In this document: positions 8,912 to 34,312 of the stretch, in pieces
Position numbering within the stretch: the stretch's first letter is position 1
How the letters are laid out: every line of letters starts with the position of its first letter
Assembly (NCBI GenBank): GCA_000965745.1
Contig: CP009479.1
Span: 1,632,001 to 1,696,000, forward strand
Length of the DNA: 64,000 nt
Direction: 5' to 3'
Origin: an uncultured archaeon
GTDB taxonomy: Archaea; Thermoplasmatota; Thermoplasmata; Thermoplasmatales; Thermoplasmataceae
Program-made: the position numbers and the translations under genes
Notes under the pieces: model-generated
The model's database searches: none
Told to the model about the DNA's origin: nothing
What the model saw: only the letters and a program-made list of their open reading frames with translations

Positions 8912-9808
8912 TCATTCTTCTATTAGATTTTCTTTCCATCTTTCATAAACCTCCCTTGGTGCTTTATAGCCTATGGCTGAGTGTAGTCTCTCGTTGTTGT
9001 AGAATGCAATGAACCTATCAATGGTGTCATCAGCATCCTGGAATGAAGAGAACTCGAACCTTCTGATCACTTCCTTCTCAAGGATGGAATTGAAGGATTC
9101 GATGAAACCGTCCTCCTTGGGCGTTGCAGGATGGATCCTCTCATGTTCGATATGGGATGAAGCGAGAAACAGCTCCACTATCCGTGATACGAATTGAGTC
9201 CCATTATCACTGCGGATCCTGACACTGGATATTGCCTCTATTCCCCTGTCCATGAAGGCAAAATCCATTGCCATCTTCACATCTGAAGAGGTGCAGTGGT
9301 ATCCCAGGTACTTTCCGACAACTTCTCTTGTATAACAGTCAATCATTGCAAACAGGTATGCTGTCCGATTCTCTCCCTGTATGTACACATACTTGATGTC
9401 CATCTCCCAGACTTTATTCGGGTTATGAACCCTGACAATGGATTCAACCACCCTCTTTGCAGGGCTGCGGTAGTTGTATGTGTGGTTGAGAAGATGGTTC
9501 TCTTTCATGATGCGGAAGACCTTCTTCCTGTTGATCCTGTAGCCAGTGCGCTGCAAATGTTTGGTGACCTTCCTGTATCCATAGCATACAAATTCCCTTG
9601 ACAGCAACTCAATGATGTCGGCAAGGACCTGATCATCGGGAATCATTATGATATCCTGGCCAACAATGCGTTCAGTCATCGATGAAGGCTTCCTCCCTCT
9701 CTTGAGATGCAATGCAGGCGATGAATGATAGAATGTGCTCCGTGGTATCCTTAGAAGTTCCAGGATTCTGGTCGTTGAGAGCCCACGTCCAGCATACTCA
9801 TTGATCAA
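8912..9808 (-). CDS. IS3 transposase OrfB (DDE domain), reached by a -1 frameshift
   Basis: YGYRKV, WEMDIKYV, IRSDNGTQF, IESFNSILEKE, YNNERLHSAIGYKAP. Confidence 0.95.
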   Translation of the reverse strand: MINEYAGRGLSTTRILELLRIPRSTFYHSSPALHLKRGRKPSSMTERIVGQDIIMIPDDQVLADIIELLSREFVCYGYRKVTKHLQRTGYRINRKKVFRIMKENHLLNHTYNYRSPAKRVVESIVRVHNPNKVWEMDIKYVYIQGENRTAYLFAMIDCYTREVVGKYLGYHCTSSDVKMAMDFAFMDRGIEAISSVRIRSDNGTQFVSRIVELFLASSHIEHERIHPATPKEDGFIESFNSILEKEVIRRFEFSSFQDADDTIDRFIAFYNNERLHSAIGYKAPREVYERWKENLIEE

Positions 9809-10107
9809 CGCGGTTTCCTCCTCGTTTTTTTATATGCTTCCTGGAGCAGTGATACCTCCAGTTCCTTCTCTGCAAGCATCTTCTTCAATCTCTCGTTCTC
9901 CTTCTTCAGCTTTCTGAGGCCTGGTTCCAAGGACCTTGTACGGGATCTGAGCCCATCCATGCCTAGTGCATCGAAGGCCTGTTTCCAACGGTAGAACATG
10001 GATGGATCCACAGAATATTTTCTGCAGGTTTCAACGACATGTCCGCTTTCTTTGATCTCGTTGATGAGTGCCAGTTTCTCTTCCGCTTTCCAGTATCTGC
10101 GAGTCAT
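9805..10107 (-). CDS. IS3 transposase OrfA (HTH plus leucine zipper)
   Basis: RRYWKAEEKL..., CRKYSVDPSMFYRWK, LKKENERLKKML. Confidence 0.92.
   Translation of the reverse strand: MTRRYWKAEEKLALINEIKESGHVVETCRKYSVDPSMFYRWKQAFDALGMDGLRSRTRSLEPGLRKLKKENERLKKMLAEKELEVSLLQEAYKKTRRKPR
9824..9831 (-). promoter_or_regulatory. Programmed -1 frameshift site (A7C) joining orfA and orfB
   Basis: Minus strand TAT AAAAAAA C GAG GAG GAA ACC GCG TTG; a -1 shift gives ...KNEEETALINE in the OrfB frame. Confidence 0.8.
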
Positions 10108-10456: not shown

Positions 10457-10978
10457 TTATTTTACAAAGGGCGTGCTGAGCTTCAGGGCGTTGATCAGAA
10501 AATCGTCTGATACCCCTACATATTTCTCATACCTGGCTACACCGTAACGCCTTACTATATCCCAGACTTCAGAGTTGACTTCATAGCTTTCGGGATACTC
10601 GTACACTTCTTCTCTGTTGAATATCTCAGTCTCCTCCTTCTGGTTGTGTTCAAGAAGAGTTTCAAAGAATAGCTCTATTCTTGTATCTATCAAGTCGTCC
10701 CTCCCCTGGGATTTCCATTTTATGAGATTCAGGGCAAGGGTCTCAAGCAACTTGTGATCTGCAGAAATCCTCTTTATGCTCTCTTGTAGGTCATCAGGCA
10801 TCCTCAGGTATGCAAGCATGCGTGGAAAAAAGATCATGTCCTCAGTCATTGCGTGAACATTGAAAACGAAATCCTTGAGCCCCAGGAAAGTCTCATACCT
10901 GTTTTCCGGTGTTATATTATTGATGTACTTCTTGATAGCGAGATGTTCAATCTTGAGCATTTCAATGATATTCCGCAT
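10457..10978 (-). CDS. Hemerythrin/HHE cation-binding domain protein
   Basis: LKIEH, HAMTEDMIFFP, ADHKLL, EHNQKEETEIF. Confidence 0.85.
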   Translation of the reverse strand: MRNIIEMLKIEHLAIKKYINNITPENRYETFLGLKDFVFNVHAMTEDMIFFPRMLAYLRMPDDLQESIKRISADHKLLETLALNLIKWKSQGRDDLIDTRIELFFETLLEHNQKEETEIFNREEVYEYPESYEVNSEVWDIVRRYGVARYEKYVGVSDDFLINALKLSTPFVK

Positions 10979-11241
10979 GAATTCAAATATAAGGCTGTTT
11001 TATTATACGCTATCCTAACATGTTAAGTATAAATGTGTGGAATAAGTCACATTTCCTATTTAATCGGGCTCCACATGTGTTGTATCGGTATTCCTGCAGC
11101 CCGGAAACAAGCCGATAGCCATGGCATGACGTGATAGAAACCCGCTGTGCAATGAGAAAATCCGAAGCAGTATGGCCTGTGCAGGAGGATAGTAAAGCGT
11201 CAATAATATCTACCAGATTCCAATGGAGGTTGGAAAAAATC

Positions 11242-12069
11242 ATGAAGGCCAGAACAGGCTTCTTAGGGCCCAGGGGGACATGGACCGAGGAAGCTGCAAT
11301 GTCCTTTTCGGACTCCCTGGAACTTATTCCGTACAGCAATATATGCAATATAGTGGATGACGTTGACAGCGGCAGGCTGACCTATGGTGTAATCCCGGTA
11401 GAAAATTCAATTGGAGGGGGTGTAGTTGATACGCTTGACTGCCTTGCCAACAGCAGGGATGCGCTCATAATTTCTGAGAAGATAATGAACATCAACCATG
11501 TTCTCATGTCTTCCGGGGAGTTGGAGCAGATTGAGGTCGTAATATCTCATCAGAACGCAATAGCTCAGTGCAGGAAGACCATAGCAAATCGCCTGCCTGC
11601 TGCCAGAGTGGATTTTTCAAGTTCAACAGCTGAAGCTGGCAGGATCGCCTCGACTGACAGCAGTGTTGGTGTTGTCGGAAGCAGAAGAATTGCGGAATTG
11701 TATGATCTCAGAATTCAGTCTGAGAGGATGTCGGACCTCAAGGACAACTACACCAGATTCGTCATGATTGGAAAGGAATTTTCAGGAAGAACTGGCAAGG
11801 ATCGCACTTCGATATGCGTTACTCTGAAGAAGAACGAATACGCATCCCTTTGGAGGTTTCTGGGCATCTTTGCAGCTCTGAAGATCAACCTTTCCCGTAT
11901 AGAGTCCAGGCCTGATCCCGTTTCTCCGGGAGAGTACAAGTTCTTCTTTGATATGTTCGGGCACAGGGACGATATGGAGGTATCGATTGCACTGAATGCG
12001 ATAAAAACATACTGCTCTACTGTCAGCATACTCGGCTCATACCCGAGGGAAGAGTGGCCAAGAGCATAG
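11242..12069 (+). CDS. pheA: Prephenate dehydratase with ACT domain
   Basis: FLGPRGTWTEEAA, PVENSIGG, NYTRF, INLSRIESRP, LGSYP; GGAGGT precedes the ATG at 11242. Confidence 0.93.
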   Translation: MKARTGFLGPRGTWTEEAAMSFSDSLELIPYSNICNIVDDVDSGRLTYGVIPVENSIGGGVVDTLDCLANSRDALIISEKIMNINHVLMSSGELEQIEVVISHQNAIAQCRKTIANRLPAARVDFSSSTAEAGRIASTDSSVGVVGSRRIAELYDLRIQSERMSDLKDNYTRFVMIGKEFSGRTGKDRTSICVTLKKNEYASLWRFLGIFAALKINLSRIESRPDPVSPGEYKFFFDMFGHRDDMEVSIALNAIKTYCSTVSILGSYPREEWPRA

Positions 12070-12110: not shown

Positions 12111-13019
12111 CTAAAGGAATCTTATCCTCGTCTCAAGTTCTCCAACCTGTTCAATGCCGGCCTGAACAAGATCTCCATCCTTGAGGTATTCCCCAGTCAT
12201 GGACCCGTTTTTCAAAGGTGTTCCGGTCGATATTATGTCCCCCGGCTCAAGGGTAATTCCTTTTGAAATGTATTCAAGGAGGGCCGGGATCTTGTGGGTG
12301 ATTGTATCTGTTCTTGCGCTCTGCTGTGTCTTGCCGTTTATGCGTACCTTGATCTCAAGATTATAGGGGTCCTTTACCTCGTCCTTTGTGACCATCCATG
12401 GACCCATCGGGGCTGCATTGTCCAGATTCTTCAGTCTCAGCCAGTTGACTTTGTGAATCGGTGAAGGGTGAGCCCTAAGGTCCCTGAAACTGAAATCATT
12501 CATCACTGTGTAGCCTGCCACACAGTCCATCGCTTCATCTTTTGAGACATCCTTGCATCTTTTCCCTATCACGAGCGCCAGTTCAATCTCATTGTCAGGC
12601 TGCCTTGAATATTCCGGAACGTTGACGGTCCCTTTATGGCCCAGAAGGCCGTTTGGAAGTTTTATGAAAACATAAGGCTCCTGCGGGGGTTTAGCCCCGG
12701 GCTCCGGTGCATGGGAGCTGTAGTTTATTCCCACCATCAGCATCTTGCTTGGCTTCAGAACAGGCGGAAGATACTCAATATTTCCCTCCTGGACGATGCA
12801 GGACTGTTCATTTCCATTCCTGCCCTCAAGAAGCTTCTTGAGGATTTCAAACGCATGCTCTCCACCTTTGAGAAGACAATCAACTGAATCGAACCAGTCC
12901 GGCGCATTTGATGCATATCTGGTCTCGAACAGTTTCCTGACATCCAGCAATTCTCCATTTTTGAACGTTCCAAGCCGTGGGCTGGAATTCTCTGTATATC
13001 TGTAATTCAGCAGCTTCAT
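12111..13019 (-). CDS. Fumarylacetoacetate hydrolase family protein
   Basis: VGINYSSH, EIELALVIGK, GYTVMNDFSFRD, GPWMVT, TLEPGDIISTGTP. Confidence 0.93.
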   Translation of the reverse strand: MKLLNYRYTENSSPRLGTFKNGELLDVRKLFETRYASNAPDWFDSVDCLLKGGEHAFEILKKLLEGRNGNEQSCIVQEGNIEYLPPVLKPSKMLMVGINYSSHAPEPGAKPPQEPYVFIKLPNGLLGHKGTVNVPEYSRQPDNEIELALVIGKRCKDVSKDEAMDCVAGYTVMNDFSFRDLRAHPSPIHKVNWLRLKNLDNAAPMGPWMVTKDEVKDPYNLEIKVRINGKTQQSARTDTITHKIPALLEYISKGITLEPGDIISTGTPLKNGSMTGEYLKDGDLVQAGIEQVGELETRIRFL

Positions 13020-13240
13020 TTTCCGTCCCTTCTGAGAGTATTATCGTGCACTGTATTAGAAATTTACCATTATGCAATTTTTTCCGGAACAAATGTGGAG
13101 CATGACGTAAAGTGGGCATTTCCTCACGTAATGATACGAGAACGGATTTTTGTGTAATGCCTTATCAGGCATATCACAGATAATTGTGCATTGCCTCCGG
13201 CGTGCAAAATATATTTAGATATAATGTATGAGGGATTTAG

Positions 13241-14341
13241 GTGGGTTATTCGGAAGACAGTGCAAAGCAGGAAAAACGTTCTATTGACAGAAGGCTGATA
13301 CTTTTCTTTGCGGTTAACATATCTGTTACTGCTCTACTATTCCTGGTTCTTTTCGGAATCTCATCCACATTCACTGCAGGAACAAAAAAAATAATTCTTT
13401 CCTCTGGCATAATCACTTCAAATTTCATTTACCTTGGAGTCCTCGCTCTGCTTTTCGGCTTGAGGCATTCAGTGGATGCAGACCACATAGCTGCAATAGA
13501 CACGTCTACTAGAAAGCTCATAAATGAGGGAAAACGTTCCGAATTTGCTGGATTCTTCTTCAGCATGGGCCACTCCACCGTGGTATTCGCGCTGTCGGTT
13601 TTACTCATGACATCCACAAGGTACGTTACCAGCCACCTGCCCAGCTTAGAGACCCTGGGGTCAGTCATAGGGCCTCTTGTCAGTTCAACCTTCCTATTCA
13701 TAATGGCTGCGATAAACCTATCCATTCTATTCGGACTACGTGCCATTTTCCACAGGGCCCTCAAAGATGACGACGCCGGGAGATTGAGCATTGATGATTT
13801 AATAGGCAGAATGGGGATACTCAACAGAGTACTGAAAGGCCTTTTTTCTTCAGTGAAGAGCCAGGCATATCTATACCCCATAGGCCTTCTGTTCGGGCTT
13901 GGTTTCGACACCGCCTCTGAAGTGGTAGTTTTATCCATTTCAGCTACTCTTGCCGGACTTTTCGTCCATGTTCCACTATACGTTCTTCTCATATTCCCTG
14001 CATTCTTCACTCTTGGAATGACCCTTATTGACACGACTGACGGGTATATGATGTTCAGAGCCTACAGATGGGCATTTTCGGATCCGGTGAAGAAACTCTG
14101 GTATAACATGGTGCTCACAGCTGCCTCAGTCGCCTTTGCAGTTCTGGCAGGCGGCTTCGAGATCATATCCACAGTTACGGGATATTTTGGCCTCAATGGT
14201 TTTCCGTGGGCATTTTTTGAATCGGTATCCAACACCTACTGGTACGTTCTTGGAATTCTCATAATCTCGGTATTTGTTGTCATAGGTCTGCTCTCATACA
14301 TGAGGTATAGAAAGTACCTGGTTTCGAGGACAACCAGTTAG
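13241..14341 (+). CDS. HoxN/HupN/NixA-family high-affinity Ni/Co permease (NiCoT)
   Basis: GLRHSVDADHIAAID, FSMGHSTVV, GLLFGLGFDTASE, GMTLIDTTDG. Confidence 0.93.
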   Translation: MGYSEDSAKQEKRSIDRRLILFFAVNISVTALLFLVLFGISSTFTAGTKKIILSSGIITSNFIYLGVLALLFGLRHSVDADHIAAIDTSTRKLINEGKRSEFAGFFFSMGHSTVVFALSVLLMTSTRYVTSHLPSLETLGSVIGPLVSSTFLFIMAAINLSILFGLRAIFHRALKDDDAGRLSIDDLIGRMGILNRVLKGLFSSVKSQAYLYPIGLLFGLGFDTASEVVVLSISATLAGLFVHVPLYVLLIFPAFFTLGMTLIDTTDGYMMFRAYRWAFSDPVKKLWYNMVLTAASVAFAVLAGGFEIISTVTGYFGLNGFPWAFFESVSNTYWYVLGILIISVFVVIGLLSYMRYRKYLVSRTTS

Positions 14342-14479
14342 CGCCTTCTGATACTGGTTTAATCAGCGCGTCTGATCTTCAACTGCAAGTTGTTGCGTAG
14401 ACTGTTCCATTAATAAGGTATTTTTATCGCAAAACTTCCTGAAAACAAAATTTATCTATAACTCCCTTCTATCAAAATT

Positions 14480-15580
14480 ATGAACAGCAAGCTGGAAGAG
14501 TTGGCGAAGAGGTTTGAAAAGGAGCGAAAACCTACATACTACCAGGATTGGGTCAGGAAGGAGGGGCTGCGCATCATTTCTGGCCATTACATTTACGATC
14601 TCAGGGACGTTGAGCTTGACCCCTGGGAAAGAAGGGGAGGTTCAGCAGTTTTCATAAACCATGAAGATTCCCACAATTCAAATGACTGCTATATCTGCGA
14701 AATTCCACCGGAAGGGCAGCTGAAACCACAGAGGCAGCTCTATGAAGAGATGATCTACGTCCTGGATGGGCAGGGCGCAACTAGAGTGTGGAATGATGCG
14801 GGTGACAAGGTATCTTTCGAATGGCACTCTGGATCCCTTTTTGCCATTCCGCTAAATTCATGGCACGAACATTTCAACACATCAGGGAAGAGGCCTGCCA
14901 GATTCATTTCCGTCACCAATATGCCGGTCGTCATGAACCTGTTCGAGGATGACGATTTTGTCTTTAACACCAAGTTTGATTTCAAGAGCAGATTTTCCGG
15001 CCGATCCGACTACTATGATGCAAAAGACCAGCCGGAAGGTTTCTTCCTTGACACTAACTTTGTACCGGATGTAAGGACGTTGAAGCTTGTTAATGCAAAG
15101 GAGAGAGGAGCCGGCGGAGGTCACATAAGATTTAATCTTGCCAGGGGAACGATGAACAGCCATATCTCGGAATACCCTGTGGGGACTTACAAGAAGGCAC
15201 ACAGGCACGGACCGGGTGCACACGTGGTGATTCTCAGCGGCCAGGGGTACACCCTGATGTGGCCGGAGGGTGAGGAAATAAAGAAATACCCTTGGAAAGA
15301 AGGAAGTATGGTAGTTCCTCCAAACCTGTGGTTCCATCAGCATTTCAATACAGGACCACAGCCTGCCAGGTACCTTGCCTTGAAATATGAGGGAACCGCC
15401 ATAAGGAATGAACTGGGAATACCCAAAGCCTGGATAAGCACCAAGCTTGGTGGTGACCAGCTTGACTACTCAGACGAGAGTACCGAGATCAGAAAGATGT
15501 TTGAGGAGGAGCTGAGAAATAACAATGTTGAATCAAAAATGGCACCTTTCTATGCAAAGGAACTGGAGGAGAGCTCCTGA
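14480..15580 (+). CDS. Bicupin of unknown function
   Basis: Domain 1 PQRQLYEE...PLNSWHEHFN (first two His replaced by Gln); domain 2 AHRHGPG...PPNLWFHQHFN. Confidence 0.85.
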   Translation: MNSKLEELAKRFEKERKPTYYQDWVRKEGLRIISGHYIYDLRDVELDPWERRGGSAVFINHEDSHNSNDCYICEIPPEGQLKPQRQLYEEMIYVLDGQGATRVWNDAGDKVSFEWHSGSLFAIPLNSWHEHFNTSGKRPARFISVTNMPVVMNLFEDDDFVFNTKFDFKSRFSGRSDYYDAKDQPEGFFLDTNFVPDVRTLKLVNAKERGAGGGHIRFNLARGTMNSHISEYPVGTYKKAHRHGPGAHVVILSGQGYTLMWPEGEEIKKYPWKEGSMVVPPNLWFHQHFNTGPQPARYLALKYEGTAIRNELGIPKAWISTKLGGDQLDYSDESTEIRKMFEEELRNNNVESKMAPFYAKELEESS

Positions 15581-15605
15581 AATTTCATCAGGCTGTGCAA
15601 CTTAA

Positions 15606-17084
15606 ATGAGCAATGAGGATCCCCCGACATTCGCCATACAGCATGATGAGGGTTGGGACATAGATTCGGTGAAACTCACCACAATTGGCATAGACATAGG
15701 GACTTCCAGCACCATTGTATCTGTGGCCTCCCTTAGCATGAAGAGGATGGCGCGAGACCTTTCCAGCCAGTTCACTGTTGTATCGAGGCGCGAGAATCAT
15801 GGTTCCAGGATAATGTTCACACCCTATACCGGTGACGAACGAATAGACGGAGATGCTCTTAAAAAGATGATTGATGAATTCTATTCGGAGCATGGTGTCA
15901 GGCCTGACGATGTCGACACCGGTGTGGTTATTCTCACGGGCGAAGCTTTGCTGAAGAAGAACTCTGAAGCGGTTGCCAATATTGTATCTCTTGGAAGGGG
16001 CAGGTTCGTGACCATAGCCGCCGGGCACCTGATGGAAGCCACTCTTGCAGCATTCGGCTCAGGGGCTGTTGAACTCTCAAAGAAAGAGGGAAAACGCATT
16101 CTGAATATTGATATTGGCGGTGGAACCACTAAACTCTCAGTTATTGAGAACGGTGAGATCGAGTCCGTCCAGGCAGTTCGTGTGGGTGGGCACACCATAG
16201 TGAGGGGGCCTGATGGAAGAATCACACGCATAGAGGAATCGGGGAAGGCAGTTCTTGAATGGCTCGGTTATGAATCAAATCCAGGAGATCTGCTGGATGA
16301 TGGAGCAATGGAAAAAGTGTCAGAATTCCTCGCACACTCCTTATTTGATGCCATTTTTGACGCAAAGAGTAATGACATAATCCCGGATTTCACACTCACG
16401 CCCTTAAGTGCTCCTCCCGGGAAAGATGTTGATGCTTTTGTAGTTTCAGGCGGCGTGGGTGAACATTTCTACGACCCGGATACCGAAGATTTTGGGGACC
16501 TCGGGAAAGGAATTGCCACGGTTCTCAGAAAAAGGCTTTCGGAGAGTGATATCAGCATCATGAGGCCGGATCACTGCATCCGGGCAACAGTAATGGGGCT
16601 GTCCCAGTACACCGCTCAAATCAGCGGAAGCACAGTCTATGTTTCGGATGAGAATGCACTTCCGCTCTTCAATATCAGAACGGTCAAAATCGAGGCGGAT
16701 CTCATCGGAGATATTGACAGTGAAAAGTTGAGGCAGAGAATCAAGGAAAGAACGGAGATGTTCGAAGTTGATGTTTCAAGCCCGTTTGCTATGTTTTTTC
16801 ATTGGGATGGAGCCCCCTCCTACAGAAGGCTGAGGGCATTCTGCGAGGGCATAATCAGGTTCGTCGGCTCAATTGATGAAGGGGCCCCGCCACTTATTCT
16901 GATCTTCGATGAGGACGTTGCTTGGATAATCGGAGATATGTTAAAAAGTGAGATGGGAGTAAGGCGAAAGGTTGTCTGCGTGGATGGAGTTTCCCTTGGA
17001 GATCTGGAATTCATAGATATTGGCAGCAAGATATATCCTGCGGGTGTACTTCCCCTGACGGTAAAATCACTCCTCTTCCATTAA
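15606..17084 (+). CDS. EutA-like ASKHA-fold ATPase (ethanolamine ammonia-lyase reactivase family)
   Basis: IGIDIGTSST, DTGVVILTGEA, FVTIAAG, LNIDIGGGTT, SGGVGE, IRATVMG, FIDIG...LPLTVKSLLF. Confidence 0.88.
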   Translation: MSNEDPPTFAIQHDEGWDIDSVKLTTIGIDIGTSSTIVSVASLSMKRMARDLSSQFTVVSRRENHGSRIMFTPYTGDERIDGDALKKMIDEFYSEHGVRPDDVDTGVVILTGEALLKKNSEAVANIVSLGRGRFVTIAAGHLMEATLAAFGSGAVELSKKEGKRILNIDIGGGTTKLSVIENGEIESVQAVRVGGHTIVRGPDGRITRIEESGKAVLEWLGYESNPGDLLDDGAMEKVSEFLAHSLFDAIFDAKSNDIIPDFTLTPLSAPPGKDVDAFVVSGGVGEHFYDPDTEDFGDLGKGIATVLRKRLSESDISIMRPDHCIRATVMGLSQYTAQISGSTVYVSDENALPLFNIRTVKIEADLIGDIDSEKLRQRIKERTEMFEVDVSSPFAMFFHWDGAPSYRRLRAFCEGIIRFVGSIDEGAPPLILIFDEDVAWIIGDMLKSEMGVRRKVVCVDGVSLGDLEFIDIGSKIYPAGVLPLTVKSLLFH

Positions 17085-17103
17085 TTTCTTTTGAGAATCG
17101 AAA

Positions 17104-18327
17104 TCACTGGGCCCCGGCCACTTCCGCTTTATCCCGGGAGTTCTTTTCCTGGAGCTTGAGGAATGGAAGCAGAAGGGAAGCGGATAGCGTGAAAATAAGC
17201 ATTATCCAGAAAGAGAAATAGAGGCTTTCCCTGTAGACAAGGAAGCTCGATAACGCAATGCCCGCTGCTCCGCCCAGAAATTGCCCGACGCCCCACACAA
17301 TTCCACCCGAAGAGGTTGAAATTTCCTTTGGGACGACCTGATTAAGATAGCCAAGAAGCGTTGGGAAACCACTGTAGGTGAAAAATGCATAAATGGAGAA
17401 GAAGAGTGCATCCAGTATCGCATTTGACCCCGACAGCAGGAGGAGGAAGAAGGCCAGCCCGGAGAATATAGTCGTCGTGGTAATTGAGAAAAACCCGCCT
17501 TTTCTCGTAGTCACAATTCCGAAGATGGTCTGCCCGGCTACTGGTGTTAAAACACCCATTGTAAAAATGAAAATTCCGAGAAACTGTGAATTTGTAACAT
17601 TGGCGAGATAGGAAGGCCCATAGGTAGCTACTGCCCTTATAACCATGGCCCTCAGGAAGACCACAGTCATCAGGGAAAATATGAACACCTTGAAAACTGA
17701 CATGTGCCCGGAGAGTGATTTCTTCTGCTTCCTGCCCCTTGATCTTGCAACGCCCTTAATCTTGGGCAATCCAAGGCTGACAAGAACAACAGCGGCGAAC
17801 GTGAAGCCGAGTGCCCACATTATGAACATGCCCTCTACCAGGCCGAATATTCCGATAAGGCCTGCAATTATCAATGGGAATATACCTCTCCCAAAACTTC
17901 CAAAAGAACCGTTTATTCCCAATATCATGGGAGTGTTTCTTCCGTATTCGGACCTTAGTATGCTGGAACCTATAGGGTGGTAGAATGACTGGCCGAAACC
18001 AAGAACTGTGACTCCAATTATGATGTAAAGGAATTCCAGGGTTCCATGCTGTACTGAAAATGCAAAGAAAAGTGCCGCCACTCCATTAAGTGCCAGTCCA
18101 AGTGCTATGAGGACACCCTTCCTCTCAAGTTTGTCTGCCAGTATTCCCACAGGGGTACTCATCGCGCCGGAAACTATCGGGTTCATTATGGCAAGGACTC
18201 CCAGAATTGCCAGATTTGTGGCGGGAAATTCCGTGTAAAGGAAGGTTATCAGTACAGGATAGAGAAATGTGCTGCCATCGTTGGCAAAATGAGCGAATGA
18301 TGTGATTCCAAATACTCTTTTTGACAC
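17104..18327 (-). CDS. MFS transporter (Fsr-like)
   Basis: FAHFAND, GILADKLERK, GFGQSFYHPIG; 12 TM segments. Confidence 0.88.
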   Translation of the reverse strand: MSKRVFGITSFAHFANDGSTFLYPVLITFLYTEFPATNLAILGVLAIMNPIVSGAMSTPVGILADKLERKGVLIALGLALNGVAALFFAFSVQHGTLEFLYIIIGVTVLGFGQSFYHPIGSSILRSEYGRNTPMILGINGSFGSFGRGIFPLIIAGLIGIFGLVEGMFIMWALGFTFAAVVLVSLGLPKIKGVARSRGRKQKKSLSGHMSVFKVFIFSLMTVVFLRAMVIRAVATYGPSYLANVTNSQFLGIFIFTMGVLTPVAGQTIFGIVTTRKGGFFSITTTTIFSGLAFFLLLLSGSNAILDALFFSIYAFFTYSGFPTLLGYLNQVVPKEISTSSGGIVWGVGQFLGGAAGIALSSFLVYRESLYFSFWIMLIFTLSASLLLPFLKLQEKNSRDKAEVAGAQ

Positions 18328-18431
18328 CTTTACTGACCCGTATTGTTATTTTTGTTGAATATAATCTGTAAGCGCTGAAACTGTCTATGAATGCTTCCAG
18401 AAAATATATCGGGAGAAAGGCCGATATGCAA

Positions 18432-19049
18432 TCAGCTTTTCTGGGCTATTTTGGAACTTTCAAGAATTCTCTGGACTTCTGCAGAGTCGATCGTTTTGCC
18501 TTCCTGGTATTCGGGAGCATTCTCGATCTGTTCAAGGTCGTTGAGGCCACTGAATCTGTAAATCCTGTTTATGGCGGAAATTATTCTTAGAGGTTTGGTC
18601 TCTGATGAATTGAAGTGCTGATGGATTGTGTTTGGTGGTATGTAGACAACATCTCCCTGCCTCCAGTCGAACCTTTTCATCTCCCCCTGTGGGACAAATT
18701 CATACTTATCGGTTATCTCGACGTCACAGTCAACATGCTCGTCGTATCCCTTTCCTTCGAGTATGTAGAGGCACTCTTCAGCAAGATGCCTGTGTTTTCC
18801 TGACCTGCTGCCAGGAGGTATGATCTGCATGTAGACATCCACGGTCTCCATGAGGGTATCCATCTGGGAATTGATCATGTGCTTCAATATGCCCTGGGGT
18901 GCCAGTTCCCATGGCATTTCGATGGGCTTTACGACTCTCTTTTTTCCTTTGCTGTTCTCTGGCCTGTCCCTCGACTCATCGAGAAGACCTCTGTAGAAGT
19001 TGGCAGTCTGGTTCCCACTGAGCCATGTCTTGCTCTCTCCCCATGCCAT
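18432..19049 (-). CDS. Cupin domain protein
   Basis: SGKHRHLAEECLYILEGKGY...GDVVYIPPNTIHQHFN; start coupled to the upstream stop (TAATG). Confidence 0.88.
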   Translation of the reverse strand: MAWGESKTWLSGNQTANFYRGLLDESRDRPENSKGKKRVVKPIEMPWELAPQGILKHMINSQMDTLMETVDVYMQIIPPGSRSGKHRHLAEECLYILEGKGYDEHVDCDVEITDKYEFVPQGEMKRFDWRQGDVVYIPPNTIHQHFNSSETKPLRIISAINRIYRFSGLNDLEQIENAPEYQEGKTIDSAEVQRILESSKIAQKS

Positions 19050-19606
19050 TACTCACCACCTTCCTGGTCCGGGTCGGCGTCTTCCCTTGGCTCATATCCT
19101 ACTCCGTTTTCGGTAGGCTCAGTTGGCCTTGGAATAACAGTCTTCTGGAACAGCATATTCATGAACATGTACATTGGCTTGGTCTTTATGACAAGTGCAC
19201 GAGCCGGTTTCTCAGTATCCGCGTTATTGTGCTGGTGAACGCAATTGTTGGGAACAATGGCGACATCCCCCGCCTCCCAGTCATATCTTTCCCCGTCATG
19301 TATCTCATAGCCTTTTCCATCCAGTATGTAGAATGATGCCTCATTTACATGGCCATGCTTCTGGGATTTCCCTCCGGGAGAATATTCTTCCAGGTGGATG
19401 TGAAGTGTTTGGCCAAGCCCGTCAACAGGCTCAATATAATGCTTGCTGAATGTCTGGGGCCCGTCAACGAATTTGATTTCCTCTGCCCTCCTCACTCTTG
19501 GCAAAGACCTAAGTCTTTTGAGTTCTTCCTTAAGATTGTATTCGCCAGATATGGCTCTCACGAATACTCGGTCCTTCTTGCTGTGATAATGAGATTCAGT
19601 TCCCAT
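19049..19606 (-). CDS. Cupin domain protein
   Basis: SQKHGHVNEASFYILDGKGY...GDVAIVPNNCVHQHNN; AGGAGGTG RBS. Confidence 0.88.
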   Translation of the reverse strand: MGTESHYHSKKDRVFVRAISGEYNLKEELKRLRSLPRVRRAEEIKFVDGPQTFSKHYIEPVDGLGQTLHIHLEEYSPGGKSQKHGHVNEASFYILDGKGYEIHDGERYDWEAGDVAIVPNNCVHQHNNADTEKPARALVIKTKPMYMFMNMLFQKTVIPRPTEPTENGVGYEPREDADPDQEGGE

Positions 19607-19728
19607 TTATACACCTCCTGAAAAATGAATAGCCAGCTTGCCCATAAATCGGTATTATATTCATAATAAATATAGTTATTCTTATTGAGGCATAGCTCAA
19701 AAAGAATTTTTTGCTAAAAATATTTAAA

Positions 19729-20499
19729 TTACTCTTTTGCAACATTCCATCTGGTGAGGTATTTCTCCAACTGCAGCAATGCAAGGTTAATAGCAATACT
19801 GATGAGCGCGACTGCCGATACCACCACGTATAATTTTATCGGTTGAATGGTGTTTGCAAAGTGAGCTGCTAGGTCCCCTACACCCGATGAGCCGGCCCAT
19901 TCCTCTGCAATCAAGACACCACCCAGCGTGAGGTTGAACGAGAGTCTGGCAGCACTGAGAATGCTCGGAAATACGTTTGGCAGCATGAGCTTCAGCTGGA
20001 GTTGAAGGGAACTGGCACCGAGTGATCTTGAGAGCCTTACGAGATTGGGGTCTACGTTGCTTACAGTATACATCGTAGTTATGAGTACGGGAAACATTCC
20101 GCTGATGAACCCGAAAAAGAACTCATAGCTGAAACCGTATCCAAGCAGGACAGAGAACAGTGTCACGAACATTACCCTCGGGATCGAATTAGCAAGGACA
20201 AGGTAAGGCTCCAGAACCTTTCTCAGATACAGGACCTCTCCTATTATCATACCCAGGGCGGCACCTGCCGCTACCGTACTTACAAACGCTGAAAGCACTA
20301 TCCCCAGGGAATATATGATCTGCGAGTAAATGGAGGGCGTGCCAATAATCGATGCGAAGTGCGTCACAGTATCAATTGGGGAACTGAGCAGTGGGTGAGG
20401 TACTATATTGGCTGAGTAAATGTACTGCCATATAGAAAAGAAGATTGCGAAAGCAAGTATTTGAAGGCCTACGATAATGGCGGTTTTCCTAATGAGCAT
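19729..20499 (-). CDS. NitT/TauT-family ABC transporter permease
   Basis: Six TM segments; EAA-like loop LSRSLGAS; LIAEEWAGSSGVG. Confidence 0.9.
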   Translation of the reverse strand: MLIRKTAIIVGLQILAFAIFFSIWQYIYSANIVPHPLLSSPIDTVTHFASIIGTPSIYSQIIYSLGIVLSAFVSTVAAGAALGMIIGEVLYLRKVLEPYLVLANSIPRVMFVTLFSVLLGYGFSYEFFFGFISGMFPVLITTMYTVSNVDPNLVRLSRSLGASSLQLQLKLMLPNVFPSILSAARLSFNLTLGGVLIAEEWAGSSGVGDLAAHFANTIQPIKLYVVVSAVALISIAINLALLQLEKYLTRWNVAKE

Positions 20500-21271
20500 A
20501 TGGCATCACCAACCTCTCAATTATGGCCAAAGCTACCAGTATCCCAGCGACTATCAATACCAATATGATTATTACCGAAAACATGAGTCCAGGGTCAAAA
20601 CTTCCAGAACTTATGCTTATCACACTTCCCAGACCATTCTCTGAAGCGATCACCTCGGCAAAAATAACGCCGATGATGGAAAAGACGAGAGAGATCCTTA
20701 TGCCAGCAAGTATGGCGCCAGCCGATGATGGTATCATGACTTTCGAAAATATCTGTGCGTTCGAAGCACCATAAGACTGCGCCAGCCTGATGTATGACTG
20801 CTTGGTCCTTCGTATGCCCGAAGAGACAATTATGATCGAAGGAAAAATTGCAAGAAATATTGCAATCGCTATCCTTGATGCTGGGTCAATCCCTAGTGTC
20901 AGGTACATAACAGGGTAGAGTATTGGCCCTGGTATTGAATAGAGCACATACACTATGGGTTCGTAAGCCTGGCCGATGAGCTTGAAGTAACCGATGGCCA
21001 TACCGACAAATATCCCCAGGCTCGAGGCAATTGCAAATGCGACGAGTATCTCGAAGAGGGTAAGCTTGAACGGAACTATGATTCCGTGAGGATAATTCGG
21101 ATAGCTGCTTGGTGCCCCGAAATATGGCAGGAAAAGTCTGTGAAAAGAGAGAACCGTCTGGGTGAATCCTGTGAATACGAAGGGATTATCGTACAGGATG
21201 TGTGCCAGCTGCCATCCTAATGCAAATACAATGGGCACAGCTATTAAGCCGATGAGAACCTTAAGCTTCAT
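20489..21271 (-). CDS. NitT/TauT-family ABC transporter permease
   Basis: LAQSYGAS...KVMIPSS; IFAEVIASENGLG. Confidence 0.9.
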   Translation of the reverse strand: MKLKVLIGLIAVPIVFALGWQLAHILYDNPFVFTGFTQTVLSFHRLFLPYFGAPSSYPNYPHGIIVPFKLTLFEILVAFAIASSLGIFVGMAIGYFKLIGQAYEPIVYVLYSIPGPILYPVMYLTLGIDPASRIAIAIFLAIFPSIIIVSSGIRRTKQSYIRLAQSYGASNAQIFSKVMIPSSAGAILAGIRISLVFSIIGVIFAEVIASENGLGSVISISSGSFDPGLMFSVIIILVLIVAGILVALAIIERLVMPYAH

Positions 21272-22058
21272 TGCTTAGCGTCCCCTCTCCGCCCAAATCT
21301 GTCATTTTTGCGGACATGTATGACCACAGCTGTCGCCTTATTTCAACCAGCCCCGGATCATCGGGATTTCTTGGTTTTTTCACATCAATGTTGATTTCTG
21401 CCTTCACCGCAGCCGGTTTGCCGGAAAGCACTATAATCTTGTCGGCAAGATAAGTAGCCTCTATGAGGCTATGGGTCACAAACAGAATGGTCTTGCCTGT
21501 TTCTTTCTGAATCCTGACCAACTCATCCCCAAGGGCAAATCTGCTCTGTTCGTCAAGTGCCCCGAAAGGCTCATCCATCACCAGGATTTTCGGATCAAGT
21601 GTCAAGGCTCTCGCCACGCTTACCCTCTGCTGCATTCCTCCGGAAAGCTGCGAAGGAAAATAATTCCTGAACTTGGCAATGCCAGTCAGTTCAAGATATT
21701 TCATTGCAACTTCCTCTCTTTTGGATTCCTCGACTCCCTTGAGTTCGAGTCCAAACTCGACGTTTTGAATGGCTGTTCTCCAAGGGAAAAGGCTTGCGTC
21801 CTGGAAGACCATAGTCAGGACATCCGGTTGAGGTCCGGTAACCGATTCACCAACAAGCGTGATCTCACCTTCATCAGGTTTCTTCAGGCCGCCAACAAGG
21901 TCAAGGAACGTAGATTTTCCTATACCGCTTGGTCCAACAATTGTTACGAACTTGCCCTCTTCCACACTGACAGACAGGTTCTGTAGAACGTGATTTGTTG
22001 ATCCGTCTGGAGCTTTGAACGATTTAGAGACGTTTTTAACTTCGAGTATTATAGACAC
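21261..22058 (-). CDS. NitT/TauT-family ABC transporter ATP-binding protein
   Basis: GPSGIGKST, VFQDASLFPW, LSGGMQQR, MDEPFGALD, FVTHS. Confidence 0.95.
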   Translation of the reverse strand: MSIILEVKNVSKSFKAPDGSTNHVLQNLSVSVEEGKFVTIVGPSGIGKSTFLDLVGGLKKPDEGEITLVGESVTGPQPDVLTMVFQDASLFPWRTAIQNVEFGLELKGVEESKREEVAMKYLELTGIAKFRNYFPSQLSGGMQQRVSVARALTLDPKILVMDEPFGALDEQSRFALGDELVRIQKETGKTILFVTHSLIEATYLADKIIVLSGKPAAVKAEINIDVKKPRNPDDPGLVEIRRQLWSYMSAKMTDLGGEGTLSNEA

Positions 22059-22164
22059 TTAACTTCCACATCCTTTGAATATTTTAATAAAAAAAGGTAT
22101 TAATAATTGTTTGGGTCAAAACATCGTTGGACAGCGACCCAGTACTTTCTGATAATAATTATTA

Positions 22165-23465
22165 GGTTCATCCTAGAATTGTGTGGGTATTTTTATCCTT
22201 CTTTTCATTATATTTCCCATGCAGGATGCTGAACAGTTGTACTCCGAGCTCTTAGGGCTCAAGAACCCTTGGAGGGTGAGAGTGTTTCACTTGATTCAAA
22301 TGACAAGGTTGTTGAAGTCTTCATAGCACACGACAGGGGAGCTAAGCTCCCATGTCCCGAGTGCAGGAGGGAGTGCATGGTCTACGATCATCTGAGGGAA
22401 AGGGTCTGGAGGGATCTTGACAGCATAGGGTTCAAGACATTCATTCATGCCAGATCACCAAGGATACAGTGTCCGGAGCATGGCATAAGAGAGGCGGTCA
22501 TGCCCCTCTCCGAGAAGAGATCAAGGTTCACTCTCAGATTCGAATCAAGATCCATAAGGATGCTCCAGAACATGGATGTTGAGAATTTCACCCGGGTAAT
22601 GGACATTTCCTGGAGCCGGGCATGGAACATCATCGATCATGCGGTTAAGAGAGGACTGTCAAGGAAAACATCAAGGCCAAGGATCATAGGCGTTGATGAC
22701 AAATCGTACAGGAAGGGGCACAAGTACATCACGCTGGTGATGGACATGGAGAACAGCGGTGTTGAGTTCATCTCCATGGACAGGAGGAAATCATCACTCG
22801 ATGAGTATTACAAAACGATGAGTGATGATGAATTATCTCGCATAGATGCGGTATCAATGGACATGTGGGATCCGTACATATCATCCACGCTTGAGCATGT
22901 ACCACAGGCTCATTCAAAGATCGTCTTCGACAGGTTTCATGTCATGCGCCATGTGAATGAAGCGGTTGATGCGGTGAGGAAGGAGGAGAATCGTGAACTG
23001 GTGAAGAAGGGTATCATGGACCTCAAAGGATCAAGGTACATATGGCTCTATTCCGGCGATCGCCTTCCCGAAAGGTACAGGGAGCGGTACAATGAGCTAA
23101 GGAATTCAGATCTAAGGACGGGCAAGGCGTACTCCATGAAGGAGAACATAAGGAACCTGTGGAATCTCCCCTCAATGGAGGATGCAATGGATTACTGGAA
23201 GAGATGGCACTCCTGGATCGTGCACTCCTCGATTGATGCAATGAAGAAGGTGGCGAAGATGATGCGAATGCACATCGACAAGATACTGAACTATTTCATC
23301 CACAGGATAACAAACGCAAAGGCAGAGGGAATCAATTCAAAGATCGCGCTGATAGAGAAGATGGCGTATGGATTCAGGAACAGAGGCCATCTCAAGACAG
23401 CAATATATTTCAAATGCGGAAATCTGGAGCTTTATCCATGAGCCCACACAAAACTAGGAAGAACC
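22165..23465 (+). mobile_element. ISL3-family insertion sequence (1301 bp)
   Basis: IRs GGTTCATCCTAGAATTGTGTGGG and CCCACACAAAACTAGGAAGAACC; 8-bp duplication AATTATTA at 22157-22164 and 23466-23473. Confidence 0.95.
22219..23441 (+). pseudogene. ISL3 transposase with a 1-bp frameshift near 22278
   Basis: MQDAEQLYSELLGLKNPWRV from ATG 22219 continues as ESVSLD in the -1 frame; CPEC, CPEHG, IGVDD, VSMDMW, FDRFHV, TNAKAEGINSKI, AYGFRN. Confidence 0.85.
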
Positions 23466-23496
23466 AATTATTATAAGATATAAGTGATCGTATAGC

Positions 23497-24570
23497 ATGG
23501 CCCTTCAGAAAGATTCAGAAGTTTTCTTAAACCAGCTTGTCCACAAAGGATTCAACACGTACTACGTTTCAAACCAGGGGGGCGGAAAAGGCGGGGGAAC
23601 CTTTACGCGAAATCCCGCCCCCCTCTTCAGCCCCTACAGTTGGAAGTACACCGACGCGAGATCTTATCTTTACAAGCTTTCTGAATTCCTTTCCCACGAA
23701 GATTCTGAAAGAATAAACATCCAATATGAGCATCCCGACCTCAAGGACATCATTTCCGCTGCCACAAGCACCACGCAGAGAGCTGGCATCCAACTCGTGA
23801 AGAGTAAGGCCCATGGACCTGTCCACAGACATACGCCTAATTCATTCCGGGTGGTTCTGGAAGCTCCTGAGGAAGGTGCAATAAGCCGAATAGACGGGGT
23901 GAATCTGGAAATGCACCCGGGTGATGTAATCGGGAACACCAACTGGATCTGGCATGAGCACTTCAACCATGGGACTTCAGATCTAATATGGACATCTTTT
24001 CTGGATGCCATACTGGTTAAATGGATCGGAGGGGTTTTCTATGACCCACCGAAGACATTCAATGGGGACGTGAATTTTCCGGACATATCTCAGGAAGAAT
24101 ATGTAAGCGTGCTTGGCCGATCAACCCTTCCAGAGGAGCTTGGGACAAATCCCAATACTCCACTGCAGTTCTACAGATTCTCTGATGCCTGTAAATCGGT
24201 CAGTGCTCTCTCAAAATTGAAAAGGGGGAAGGAAAGGGTAGCGGTGGAATACAAGAACCCAACCACCGGCGGATCGATTTCGGCAAACCAGTCGCTCAAG
24301 CTAAACCTGATTCCAGGTGGATGCTTAACCCCCATGACAAGGAAAACAGAGAACATCATCTTCCTGAATTTTTCAGGTGAAACTACGCTGGAATTGGGTA
24401 ACGGTGAAGGAGAATTTGTTCTTGGCAAGTACGATGTCGCAGTATTGCCTTCATGGACCTCACACAGAGTGGTTAACAATTCATATTCTGATGAAGCTCT
24501 CTATTTTACAGCTTCTGACGCCCCGTTATTCAAAAATTGCGGCCTATATCGTGAAGAAATTGTCGGGTGA
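23497..24570 (+). CDS. Gentisate 1,2-dioxygenase-like cupin (paralogue 1)
   Basis: AGIQLV...VHRHTPNSFRVVLE, WIWHEHFN, VEYKNPTTGG, VLPSW, ASDAPL. Confidence 0.85.
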   Translation: MALQKDSEVFLNQLVHKGFNTYYVSNQGGGKGGGTFTRNPAPLFSPYSWKYTDARSYLYKLSEFLSHEDSERINIQYEHPDLKDIISAATSTTQRAGIQLVKSKAHGPVHRHTPNSFRVVLEAPEEGAISRIDGVNLEMHPGDVIGNTNWIWHEHFNHGTSDLIWTSFLDAILVKWIGGVFYDPPKTFNGDVNFPDISQEEYVSVLGRSTLPEELGTNPNTPLQFYRFSDACKSVSALSKLKRGKERVAVEYKNPTTGGSISANQSLKLNLIPGGCLTPMTRKTENIIFLNFSGETTLELGNGEGEFVLGKYDVAVLPSWTSHRVVNNSYSDEALYFTASDAPLFKNCGLYREEIVG

Positions 24571-24727
24571 GAACCCGGCCCATGTGATAGAATCTCTCTC
24601 GCGGATGTGGTATTTCAGCATATGGAGATAGGGATATGTTGATAAGCTCGAAGAATTAAAAATACAAAAGACATAAGTTTTAAATAATACCTTACTGATT
24701 GATTTTAAAACCCAAAGAGTTGATAAC

Positions 24728-25789
24728 ATGAATAAGACAACGACGATTGCAGTAGCGATTGTTGTTGCTGCTGTTGTCATAGCCGGCGGAATTGTTGGCT
24801 TTGGAACCATTACCAGTGGTAAGAGCAGCGGCAGTAACAACACGAACTACTTGTCTAAGACGAGTTTCAGCGTAGCCGATTTTGGAATTGATCACCCGGA
24901 CGCTGGAGCTTACGGATGGATGGCGGGCACTAGTCACACAAATACGAGCAACACGCTGCAGAAGTACGATCCCAATATAAAGGTCGTAGACCTGAAGGGT
25001 GGAAGTGGCGCAGTAGCATCAGCAATTGCGGCTGGAACAGTACAGATGGGAATGCTCTCCGCTGATGGTGCACTTCACGCAATAAACTCCAGTGTGCCGA
25101 TCAAGATAGTGGGAGTGTACAGAACGTCACCTATAGGTGATTTTGTGTATGTTTCGCCTAGCTCAACCTACAACAAGCTATCGGACCTATCGGGAAAGAA
25201 CGTTACTTTCGCAAACAGCAAGCCAGGAAGCCTGGATGTTCTCCTGAATGGAATAATTGCAGCAGACTACAAAGTGAACATAACACATGATTACGTAGGA
25301 TCACATGAGGCACAGCAGGCAGCAGTGCTTAATGGGAAGGCAACCGCATCCACAGGAGCGTATTTCGATGTATACAAGCTTGTTAAGAGCGGATACCTAA
25401 AGTCCATCGGCAATATAACAGAGAACTGGCCGGCCTTCGTGGTTGTTGCCAACACATCGTTCATACACAATCACCCCAACGCAGTGAAGGCAGCACTTAT
25501 GGGAATGGAATACGGAAACTACCTGTTCGACCAGAACGCAGGCAACTTTGCATACAACTTCCTGAAGTCATACTACAACTTCTCAGCAAGCGAAACTCAG
25601 TTCTTCATGAGCACAATGCACTATTCAACAAACGGAACAATATACCTCAAATCACTTAATGAAGAGCTTACGACCTTGCAGGCGGACAATATCATTTCAC
25701 CGAACCTCAAACTATCACAGCTTTACACAGACCAGTTTTCACAGGTAGTGAATACAACGTATCCGCCAGGAATAATAAGAGCAGCTTGA
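24728..25789 (+). CDS. ABC substrate-binding protein (SsuA/NMT1/THI5-like) with N-terminal membrane anchor
   Basis: N-terminal TM helix; GGSGAVASAIAAGTVQMG, LSDLSGK, SKPGSL; many N-x-S/T sequons. Confidence 0.85.
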   Translation: MNKTTTIAVAIVVAAVVIAGGIVGFGTITSGKSSGSNNTNYLSKTSFSVADFGIDHPDAGAYGWMAGTSHTNTSNTLQKYDPNIKVVDLKGGSGAVASAIAAGTVQMGMLSADGALHAINSSVPIKIVGVYRTSPIGDFVYVSPSSTYNKLSDLSGKNVTFANSKPGSLDVLLNGIIAADYKVNITHDYVGSHEAQQAAVLNGKATASTGAYFDVYKLVKSGYLKSIGNITENWPAFVVVANTSFIHNHPNAVKAALMGMEYGNYLFDQNAGNFAYNFLKSYYNFSASETQFFMSTMHYSTNGTIYLKSLNEELTTLQADNIISPNLKLSQLYTDQFSQVVNTTYPPGIIRAA

Positions 25790-25815
25790 GGATTTCATAA
25801 TCCTCAATTTTTTTT
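25786..25815 (+). terminator. Hairpin plus T-tract terminator
   Basis: TTGAGGATT-TCAT-AATCCTCAA followed by T8, between convergent genes. Confidence 0.65.
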
Positions 25816-25878
25816 AAAATGCATAGATTTGTTTACAATTTTAAAAATTGAAATAAAGAGATAAAAATTGAATTACTC

Positions 25879-28299: not shown

Positions 28300-28301
28300 A
28301 A

Positions 28302-33037: not shown

Positions 33038-33128
33038 ACTTTGCAATATGATAGATTTATTAGAAATTATTGATTGATAGCTACTAAAATTTTCCTCATG
33101 TGCTGCTTCGCTGGAATGTCACCTGTCG

Positions 33129-34145: not shown

Positions 34146-34312
34146 CAGACCACGAATATCCTGAAAAATATTAAAATGTGGCATGTGGAAAATGATGTCC
34201 TTTCACCCAAGCATTTTATCTTGATATGCGGCGTATTTCAAAAAATGATCAAGGATTCATAGCAATAAAAAAGGGGACCTCAAATGGGTCCACCTTAAAA
34301 GTTTCCAGAGGA

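Follow-up and report, generated by a model that had tools for sequence, protein, structure and literature searches.

What does a relative of EutA do in a genome that encodes no ethanolamine ammonia-lyase? EutA is the ATP-dependent reactivating factor of the adenosylcobalamin-dependent ethanolamine ammonia-lyase EutBC. The question is raised by a stretch of 64,000 nucleotides from an uncultured archaeon of the Thermoplasmataceae (GenBank assembly GCA_000965745.1, contig CP009479.1, positions 1,632,001 to 1,696,000), hereafter the window, in which a nickel/cobalt permease of the NicO/NiCoT type, a bicupin and an EutA-like ATPase of the ASKHA superfamily are encoded in one direction and two single-domain cupins (monocupins) of 185 and 205 aa in the other. 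An earlier note on this DNA had proposed that the ATPase has a client other than EutBC, most simply a heteromeric cupin enzyme. The analysis described here indicates that the ATPase very probably serves cupins and not a B12 enzyme, and that the module probably represents a metalloenzyme not described before, together with an ATP-driven helper of its own.

The resemblance of the ATPase to EutA is extensive. Its match to the profile PF06277 (328 bits) spans positions 2-475 of 475, and the protein is collinear from end to end with EutA of Escherichia coli (b2451; 27% identity, E = 4e-54), with which it shares the ASKHA motifs and a C-terminal TVKSLxF ending. Its conserved nucleotide-binding motifs are DIGT, DTG..LTGE, DIGGGTTK and SGGVGE. 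DIGT, DIGGGTTK and SGGVGE are invariant or nearly so and represent the phosphate-1, phosphate-2 and adenosine motifs of the ASKHA superfamily. The AlphaFold2 model, with a predicted local distance difference test (pLDDT) score of 87.7, matches Ppx/GppA, PilM, MreB and HgdC. The profile match, the collinearity and the presence of B12-binding domain proteins encoded elsewhere in the genome would all fit a true EutA whose client, be it ethanolamine ammonia-lyase or another B12 enzyme, is encoded outside the locus. This explanation, however, is already contradicted by four lines of evidence, and we consider it extremely improbable. First, the host genome, a single 2.23-Mb contig that is 99.4% complete, carries one PF06277 gene and has no match to the EutB (PF06751) or EutC (PF05985) families anywhere in it, so that the proposal of a different client survives a genome-wide search. 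Second, the four NCBIfam EutA equivalogs all score below their cut-offs, with the best reaching 261.9 bits against a cut-off of 598. Third, in a FastTree phylogeny of 123 sequences a single branch with a support of 100 splits 28 canonical EutAs (27 Bacillota proteins and E. coli EutA) from 95 cupin-linked proteins, among which the window protein lies; long branches were flagged by the program and the position of the root in this tree is not fixed. Fourth, eutB or eutC adjoins the gene in all 27 of the best EutA loci from 301 Bacillota genomes sampled, none of which has a bicupin, whereas eutB or eutC was found within 10 kb in none of 84 loci of relatives of the window ATPase, of which 68 have a bicupin.

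The two kinds of ATPase can occur in one organism. Paenibacillus thalictri has one beside eutB and the other in a cupin operon, and eutB was absent in four of the five bacterial carriers tested. The cupin-linked clade, which is never found beside eutBC, differs from EutA further in a leader of its own at the N-terminus, which is rich in His in most members, and in a loop that is conserved within the clade and lies at the predicted interface described below. The claim that the client is not EutBC is thus supported by the absence of eutBC, by the separate clade and by a conserved linkage to cupins. The finding has a wider bearing, since thousands of database proteins are labelled EutA although their genomes or loci lack ethanolamine ammonia-lyase; they fall in a clade of their own that is wired to cupins.

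How far does this linkage extend? A database search with the ATPase gave at least 6,700 clusters at 90% identity among the matches listed, and a scan of one genome per species gave at least 576 relatives, from which 80 loci were taken for analysis. These came from Binatia, Pseudomonadota, Chloroflexota, Actinomycetota, Bacillota, Acidobacteriota, Verrucomicrobiota and Nitrososphaerales. The four-gene set of bicupin, ATPase and two monocupins recurs in archaea, Bacillota, Actinomycetota and Pseudomonadota. Three genomes from the order of the window carry it, as do Nitrososphaerales; the cupin-ATPase linkage is therefore conserved across two domains of life. Not every locus of the ATPase clade without eutBC holds all three cupins: the bicupin is present in 68 of 84, as counted above, and the full four-gene set was found in 14 loci. 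These are 14 of the 23 loci that carry an orthologue of the 185-aa cupin, and in them the four genes always lie within 12 kb. The other nine show only two or three of the four genes, several of them ending at a contig end. Compact four-gene operons of less than 6 kb occur in five loci, at least four gene orders were seen, and the 205-aa cupin always comes directly after the 185-aa cupin. Conservation of the cupins is high (Table 1). The bicupin is 85-88% identical in the nearest archaeal copies, the archaeal locus L004 and the congener G310, and the 185-aa cupin is the most conserved protein of the set, with 45% of columns invariant among 23 sequences. In a comparison of window positions 12111-29734 with the corresponding locus of the congener (L131, G310:C13:25000-44900), island proteins were 64-90% identical, the cupins 84-90% and the large subunit of a molybdenum hydroxylase 87%; the 56% of the ATPase was the lowest identity of any island protein compared. 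Since the ATPase diverges far more than the cupins, an accessory factor fits better than a catalytic subunit.

The monocupins do not accompany the ATPase everywhere. In about 20 loci the ATPase has an orthologous bicupin (59-64% identical) as its direct neighbour, and a monocupin pair is missing from the surrounding 10 kb. In Cohnella the pair lies just beyond the flank examined, in Caulobacter sp. S45 it is on another contig, and in Phyllobacterium no pair was found. Other classes of bicupin, about 40% and about 30% identical to that of the window, occur with the ATPase alone. Since bicupin and ATPase are found without monocupins, the core unit is the bicupin plus the ATPase, and the three-cupin form in the window is one well-conserved subtype of this unit. 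The same loci would be expected if only the ATPase and the bicupin were partners and the two monocupins were a separate enzyme of the same pathway. This arrangement appears rather unlikely to us, since the monocupin pair is seen only with the orthologous bicupin class, lies inside the compact operons of five loci, and is conserved at 72-90%, which suggests extensive protein interfaces. We favor the view that the bicupin and the two monocupins form one conserved metal-dependent enzyme, presumably a heteromer. Where a locus has two bicupins, each is an orthologue of the window bicupin and neither is a fusion of the two monocupins, so that gene fusions lend no support to a monocupin heterodimer. 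In L041 (Aromatoleum toluclasticum), L022 and L071, two or three ATPase-bicupin pairs that differ in class lie within 20 kb of each other; the presence of one ATPase per bicupin in such multi-pair genomes suggests pair-specific recognition.

PF07883 (Cupin_2) matches all three cupin proteins, which places them in the cupin superfamily, and pairwise BLASTP comparisons (E-values of 4e-9 to 5e-21) identify their four cupin domains as true paralogues. The sequence pattern that the earlier note described as common to the four domains is roughly right, except that the spacing from G to P is four or five residues and not always four. Its observation of QRQ in place of HxH in the first domain of the bicupin was correct: these are residues 84-86, and Q84 and Q86 are invariant across 39 bicupin orthologues. 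The N-terminal barrel of the bicupin has QxQ..EE where the His motif is expected. In the C-terminal barrel the motif is HxHxxxxH, with a fourth His in addition, and H241, H243, H286 and H288 are invariant in 63 bicupin sequences of all classes. Metal-ligand sets are thus complete in three of the four cupin barrels, the exception being the QxQ barrel. The AlphaFold2 model of the bicupin (pLDDT 90.8) has a bicupin fold, and a fold search with it returned oxalate decarboxylase, MncA and gentisate dioxygenase at template modelling (TM) scores of about 0.48, with vicilin-type storage proteins also among its neighbours and no close structural neighbour. Sequence searches of the PDB with the cupins and the ATPase found weak matches only, to gentisate dioxygenases and MreB, and the fold searches yielded generic bicupin and ASKHA neighbours with no functional lead. 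Look-alike clusters in the ESM Atlas are all named 'cupin domain protein' bar one; this cluster of bicupin orthologues (73 members, Cupin_2 in 92%) has been automatically named 'Ethanolamine ammonia lyase-activating protein', which looks like a mislabel carried over from the neighbouring gene.

Might the ATPase and the bicupin touch each other? The two were folded together, each with its own alignment, alongside three controls. The predicted complex scored 0.71 and the best control 0.00; of 80 solved complexes 58 attained that mark, as did 2 of 110 mismatched pairs. Runs agreed in at least 85% of contacts, and the pLDDT of the partner was at least 78. A sequence search of solved structures found no EutA, and as there is no solved complex of EutA, the prediction is unlikely to reproduce a structure already known. 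The model supports binding of the C-terminal domain of the ATPase to the degenerate N-terminal barrel of the bicupin, in agreement with the physical association that the earlier note had envisaged. On the bicupin the predicted interface comprises residues 77-80, 98-102, 112-114, 130-137 and part of the linker. It overlaps those columns of the N-domain that show no variation in any bicupin class (G97, G99, F113, E114, W115 and N133). On the ATPase it comprises residues 340-343, 402-409 and 436-449 of the C-terminal domain, and W400 and R408 in the loop 400-409 are conserved only in the cupin-linked clade. The N-terminal barrel, without its His ligands, appears to be an adaptor for the ATPase, and an earlier guess that the QRQ domain is structural fits the modelled interface.

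Evidence on the metal comes from the permease and from the ATPase itself. The NiCoT protein contains the sequence RHSVDADH, where the signature of the family in transmembrane segment 2 is +HAxDADH; its TIGR00802 score is 281 bits against a cut-off of 333, and its PF03824 score is above cut-off. NicO-family genes lie within 10 kb of the ATPase gene in 17 of the 84 loci and belong to at least two subfamilies, one of about 350 aa (Alicyclobacillus, Caulobacter) and one of about 270 aa (Burkholderiales), of which one short member was confirmed as PF03824. A His-rich leader, defined as at least three His before the ASKHA core, was found in 105 of the 115 top ATPase homologues that carry the conserved ASKHA start motif, and 17 of these have a His-rich C-terminal tail in addition. 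E. coli EutA has no such leader. Nickel or cobalt is plausible as the cupin metal, and in this organism it would probably be imported by the adjacent NiCoT permease.

We propose that the C-terminal domain of the ATPase docks on the adaptor barrel, that the C-terminal barrel of the bicupin and the two monocupins retain full metal sites, and that ATP hydrolysis would install, exchange or renew the buried cupin metal. The parallel is with EutA, which frees its B12 enzyme of dead cofactor: by analogy, both proteins are probably ATP-driven helpers that act on the tightly bound cofactor of a partner, a B12 enzyme for EutA and a cupin for the window ATPase. The latter is very probably a dedicated partner of the cupin enzyme and not an ethanolamine ammonia-lyase reactivase. 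That the ATPase is an accessory maturase or reactivase of the cupin metal centre has, in our estimate, an even chance of being right. This reading is favored because the ATPase evolves fast relative to its clients, because His-rich leaders and metal-permease neighbours occur across the family, and because reactivation is the known function of the only characterised homologue. Somewhat more tentatively, we suggest that a widespread and so far unstudied class of cupin metalloenzymes relies on a new class of ASKHA maturase or reactivase, of common descent with EutA, that docks on an adaptor barrel and inserts or exchanges a kinetically trapped metal, probably nickel or cobalt. Such a protein would be the first ASKHA-type metallochaperone, and its client the first cupin enzyme known to need an ATP-driven helper.

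Alternatively, the ATPase could be a catalytic or energising subunit, with ATP hydrolysis or substrate phosphorylation in stoichiometric coupling with the reaction of the cupins. Substrate activation of this kind is known from the ASKHA-fold subunits of hydantoinase/oxoprolinase and acetone carboxylase, and the ATPase has weak Pfam matches to Hydantoinase_A and BcrAD_BadFG. The invariant nucleotide-binding motifs, the strict one-to-one pairing of paralogous ATPases and bicupins within genomes, the compact four-gene operons and the stable interface in the model would also be in keeping with a subunit. A subunit would not, however, be expected to evolve so much faster than the rest of its enzyme, at 56% versus 84-90% identity in the congener and about 40% versus 60-80% across phyla. 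It would leave the His-rich leaders and the recurrent NicO neighbours without a role, and EutA, the nearest characterised homologue, is a reactivase and not a catalytic subunit. We therefore regard a catalytic role as unlikely and prefer that of a maturase or reactivase.

Several observations nonetheless count against an ATPase that handles nickel or cobalt for a cupin enzyme. The leader is acidic and not His-rich in the window ATPase and in the three archaeal proteins closest to it. The NiCoT gene is missing from the syntenic islands of L004 and of the congener, where it would lie between an FAA (fumarylacetoacetate) hydrolase gene and the bicupin gene; the link to nickel or cobalt is therefore not obligatory, and iron or manganese, which most ring-cleaving cupins use, could be the metal instead. 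The NiCoT gene is probably a recent addition to the island of this genome. We know of no ASKHA-fold metal chaperone. Four loci with full 10-kb flanks (L062, L067, L079 and L086) have no bicupin nearby, and the one ATPase per bicupin in L041, L022 and L071 would also fit a stoichiometric subunit. As the bicupin model has no close structural neighbour, the type of reaction has to be read from gene context alone.

The proposed helper can be compared with several known systems. DdrAB and GdrAB, the reactivases of diol and glycerol dehydratases, are two-subunit factors with an ASKHA/Hsp70-like large subunit; they are dedicated, ATP-driven and encoded beside their own enzyme. Their dedicated helper role is like that proposed here, but their clients are B12 enzymes and no sequence match to them was found. 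UreG, HypB and CooC are P-loop GTPases or ATPases that serve urease, hydrogenase and carbon monoxide dehydrogenase. Together with the His-rich nickel chaperones they resemble the system in nucleotide-driven assembly of a metal centre, in His-rich tails and in linkage to nickel/cobalt permeases; they differ in that they are not ASKHA proteins and their clients are not cupins. Gentisate 1,2-dioxygenase and its kin (3bu7, 2d40 and 2phd) are the best PDB sequence matches of all three cupins and share the bicupin fold and an aromatic-catabolic gene context. The matches are weak, however, with E-values of 1e-11 at best over a single motif region, and the domain arrangement differs, as the TM score noted above indicates. 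The window cupins score 16-24 bits with TIGR02272 (gentisate 1,2-dioxygenase; cut-off 442) and are thus not members of this family. Gentisate dioxygenases are homo-oligomers that need no ATPase, and true gentisate-dioxygenase-like genes are present separately in the same island. The manganese cupin MncA (PDB 2vqa) traps whichever metal is present at folding (PMC11742986). This kinetic trapping provides a rationale for an ATP-driven exchange factor. MncA is likewise a bicupin, but its choice of metal is solved by the folding compartment with no helper ATPase (PMC11742986), and it has no sequence relationship to the window bicupin beyond the fold. Our literature search on EutA-like/cupin pairings, heteromeric cupins, ASKHA metallochaperones and aromatic catabolism found no paper that describes the system. 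If the ATPase is a maturase or reactivase, it would bring a fold not so far represented among the few known types of metallochaperone and show how cells handle kinetic metal trapping in cupin barrels.

What reaction might the cupin enzyme catalyse? The module lies in a catabolic island that spans 12.1-35.4 kb of the window (Table 1) and also holds a further MFS transporter. The five genes named in the earlier note proved to be open reading frames with the ends it had assigned to them, although its list had passed over the MFS gene between the ATPase and the monocupins. The 25 nt that it counted from the bicupin stop to the ATG of the ATPase are correct, and the monocupin frames, which it described as translationally coupled, share base 19049 in a stop/start overlap; the gap from the NiCoT gene to the bicupin gene is 138 nt. 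An orthologue of the MFS gene, 63% identical, has the same place in L004, and the gene is absent at the corresponding place in the congener.

Table 1 Features of the module, its island and the adjoining genes (positions in the window), with protein identity to the window copy
Feature	Position	Strand	Profile matches or motifs	Identity across phyla	Identity in congener G310
IS3-type element (HTH_Tnp_1 reading frame, then rve integrase reading frame)	8912-10107	-			
Hemerythrin-domain protein	10457-10978	-			
Prephenate dehydratase with ACT domain	11131-12069	+			
FAA-hydrolase family enzyme, part of wider catabolic island	12111-13019	-	PF01557, 213 bits		
NicO/NiCoT nickel/cobalt permease	13241-14341	+	PF03824, 244 bits, above cut-off		
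Bicupin, 366 aa	14480-15580	+	Two Cupin_2 stretches	59-66% (full length)	88%
EutA-family ASKHA ATPase, 492 aa, cupin-linked clade	15606-17084	+	PF06277, 328 bits	34-41% (57% in L004)	56%
MFS transporter, last gene of minus-strand unit	17104-18327	-	PF07690, 85 bits		
Monocupin, 205 aa	18432-19049	-	Cupin_2 and Auxin_BP; HRHxxEE plus H	57-75%	84%
Monocupin, 185 aa	19049-19606	-	Cupin_2; HGHxxE plus H	72-90% (about 175 residues)	90%
ABC transporter, NitT/TauT type (two permeases and ATPase)	19729-22058	-			
ISL3-family transposase, complete	22269-23441	+	DDE_Tnp_ISL3, zinc ribbon, helix-turn-helix		
Gentisate-dioxygenase-like bicupins, rest of catabolic island	23497-24570 and 31152-32210				
Likely binding protein (NMT1-type) of the NitT/TauT-type ABC transporter	24728-25789	+			
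Three-subunit molybdenum hydroxylase	25879-29734				
Binding-protein-fold protein, probably cytoplasmic, 334 aa	30032-31036	+	Weak NMT1/Phosphonate-bd match		
Alpha/beta hydrolase	32240-33046				
Amidohydro_2 protein	33129-34184				

Families of the island are also found around the module in G310 and G319, two further genomes of this order, and in the Nitrososphaerales locus L006. The NitT/TauT-type ABC transporter is syntenic in L004, G310 and G319, and the FAA hydrolase is beside the module in L006 and G310. Bacterial three-cupin loci have a LigXa-type Rieske oxygenase with its reductase, an IclR regulator, TctABC or ABC uptake systems, a Zn-dependent alcohol dehydrogenase, and a class II aldolase-family protein whose NCBIfam matches, all below cut-off, include 3,4-dihydroxyphthalate decarboxylase. 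As judged from the predicted products, the flanking genes suggest that a hydroxylated aromatic or heteroaromatic acid is catabolised aerobically. The cupin enzyme would most likely perform a step that depends on oxygen, probably cleavage of the ring, in the breakdown of a hydroxylated aromatic or N-heteroaromatic acid. This acid would be delivered by the transporters of the island and be made by the molybdenum hydroxylase, or by the Rieske oxygenase in bacteria. The same neighbours bear on the possibility that the cupins serve as metal-binding, storage or sensor proteins instead of enzymes, with the ATPase remodelling them in nickel/cobalt homeostasis. NicO neighbours, His-rich leaders and the presence of vicilin-type storage proteins and the metal-trapping MncA among the structural neighbours would suit such proteins. 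The consistent neighbours are catabolic, however (hydroxylases, Rieske oxygenases, decarboxylase-like proteins, hydrolases and IclR regulators), and the full metal-ligand sets together with conserved pocket residues are typical of enzymes, so that we hold a non-enzymatic role to be very improbable. A cupin enzyme that is up to 90% identical between archaea and bacteria likely catalyses an unrecognised but common step, which would belong to aerobic breakdown of aromatic acids in soils and in acidic hot habitats.

Two published systems were considered as leads and set aside. In picolinate 6-hydroxylation the four-component PicB is a Rieske oxygenase and hence not this module. A paper on riboflavin catabolism mentions a cupin (LumY) and a cobalt hydrolase, but no ATPase, and has no link to the module.

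A class II aldolase/adducin gene directly follows the ATPase gene in at least nine bacterial loci (L046:11474-12157; L021, L022, L044, L047, L048, L053, L056 and L066). It is 53-58% identical between Paenibacillus and Burkholderiales, with 3,4-dihydroxyphthalate decarboxylase as its third-best NCBIfam match, and it has no counterpart in the archaeal island. The binding-protein-fold protein of the island (Table 1) has neither a signal peptide nor a membrane anchor and is therefore probably cytoplasmic. Relatives that are 33-37% identical to it are encoded directly upstream of the ATPase in many Burkholderiales loci. Some aromatic decarboxylases have a binding-protein-type fold, and the protein may act in the pathway as an enzyme and not in transport. 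The hemerythrin-domain protein and the prephenate dehydratase are encoded just outside the island, and no link of either to the module was seen.

Among 60 related genomes of the same order, two carry the ATPase, and the island is flanked and interrupted by insertion sequence (IS) elements; it is accessory and was probably acquired horizontally. The IS3-type element lies about 2 kb before the island. The ISL3-family transposase gene lies within it, between the gene for the ABC transporter ATPase and the first gentisate-dioxygenase-like gene. Since these two genes are adjacent in the congener, the ISL3 element is a recent insertion into the island.

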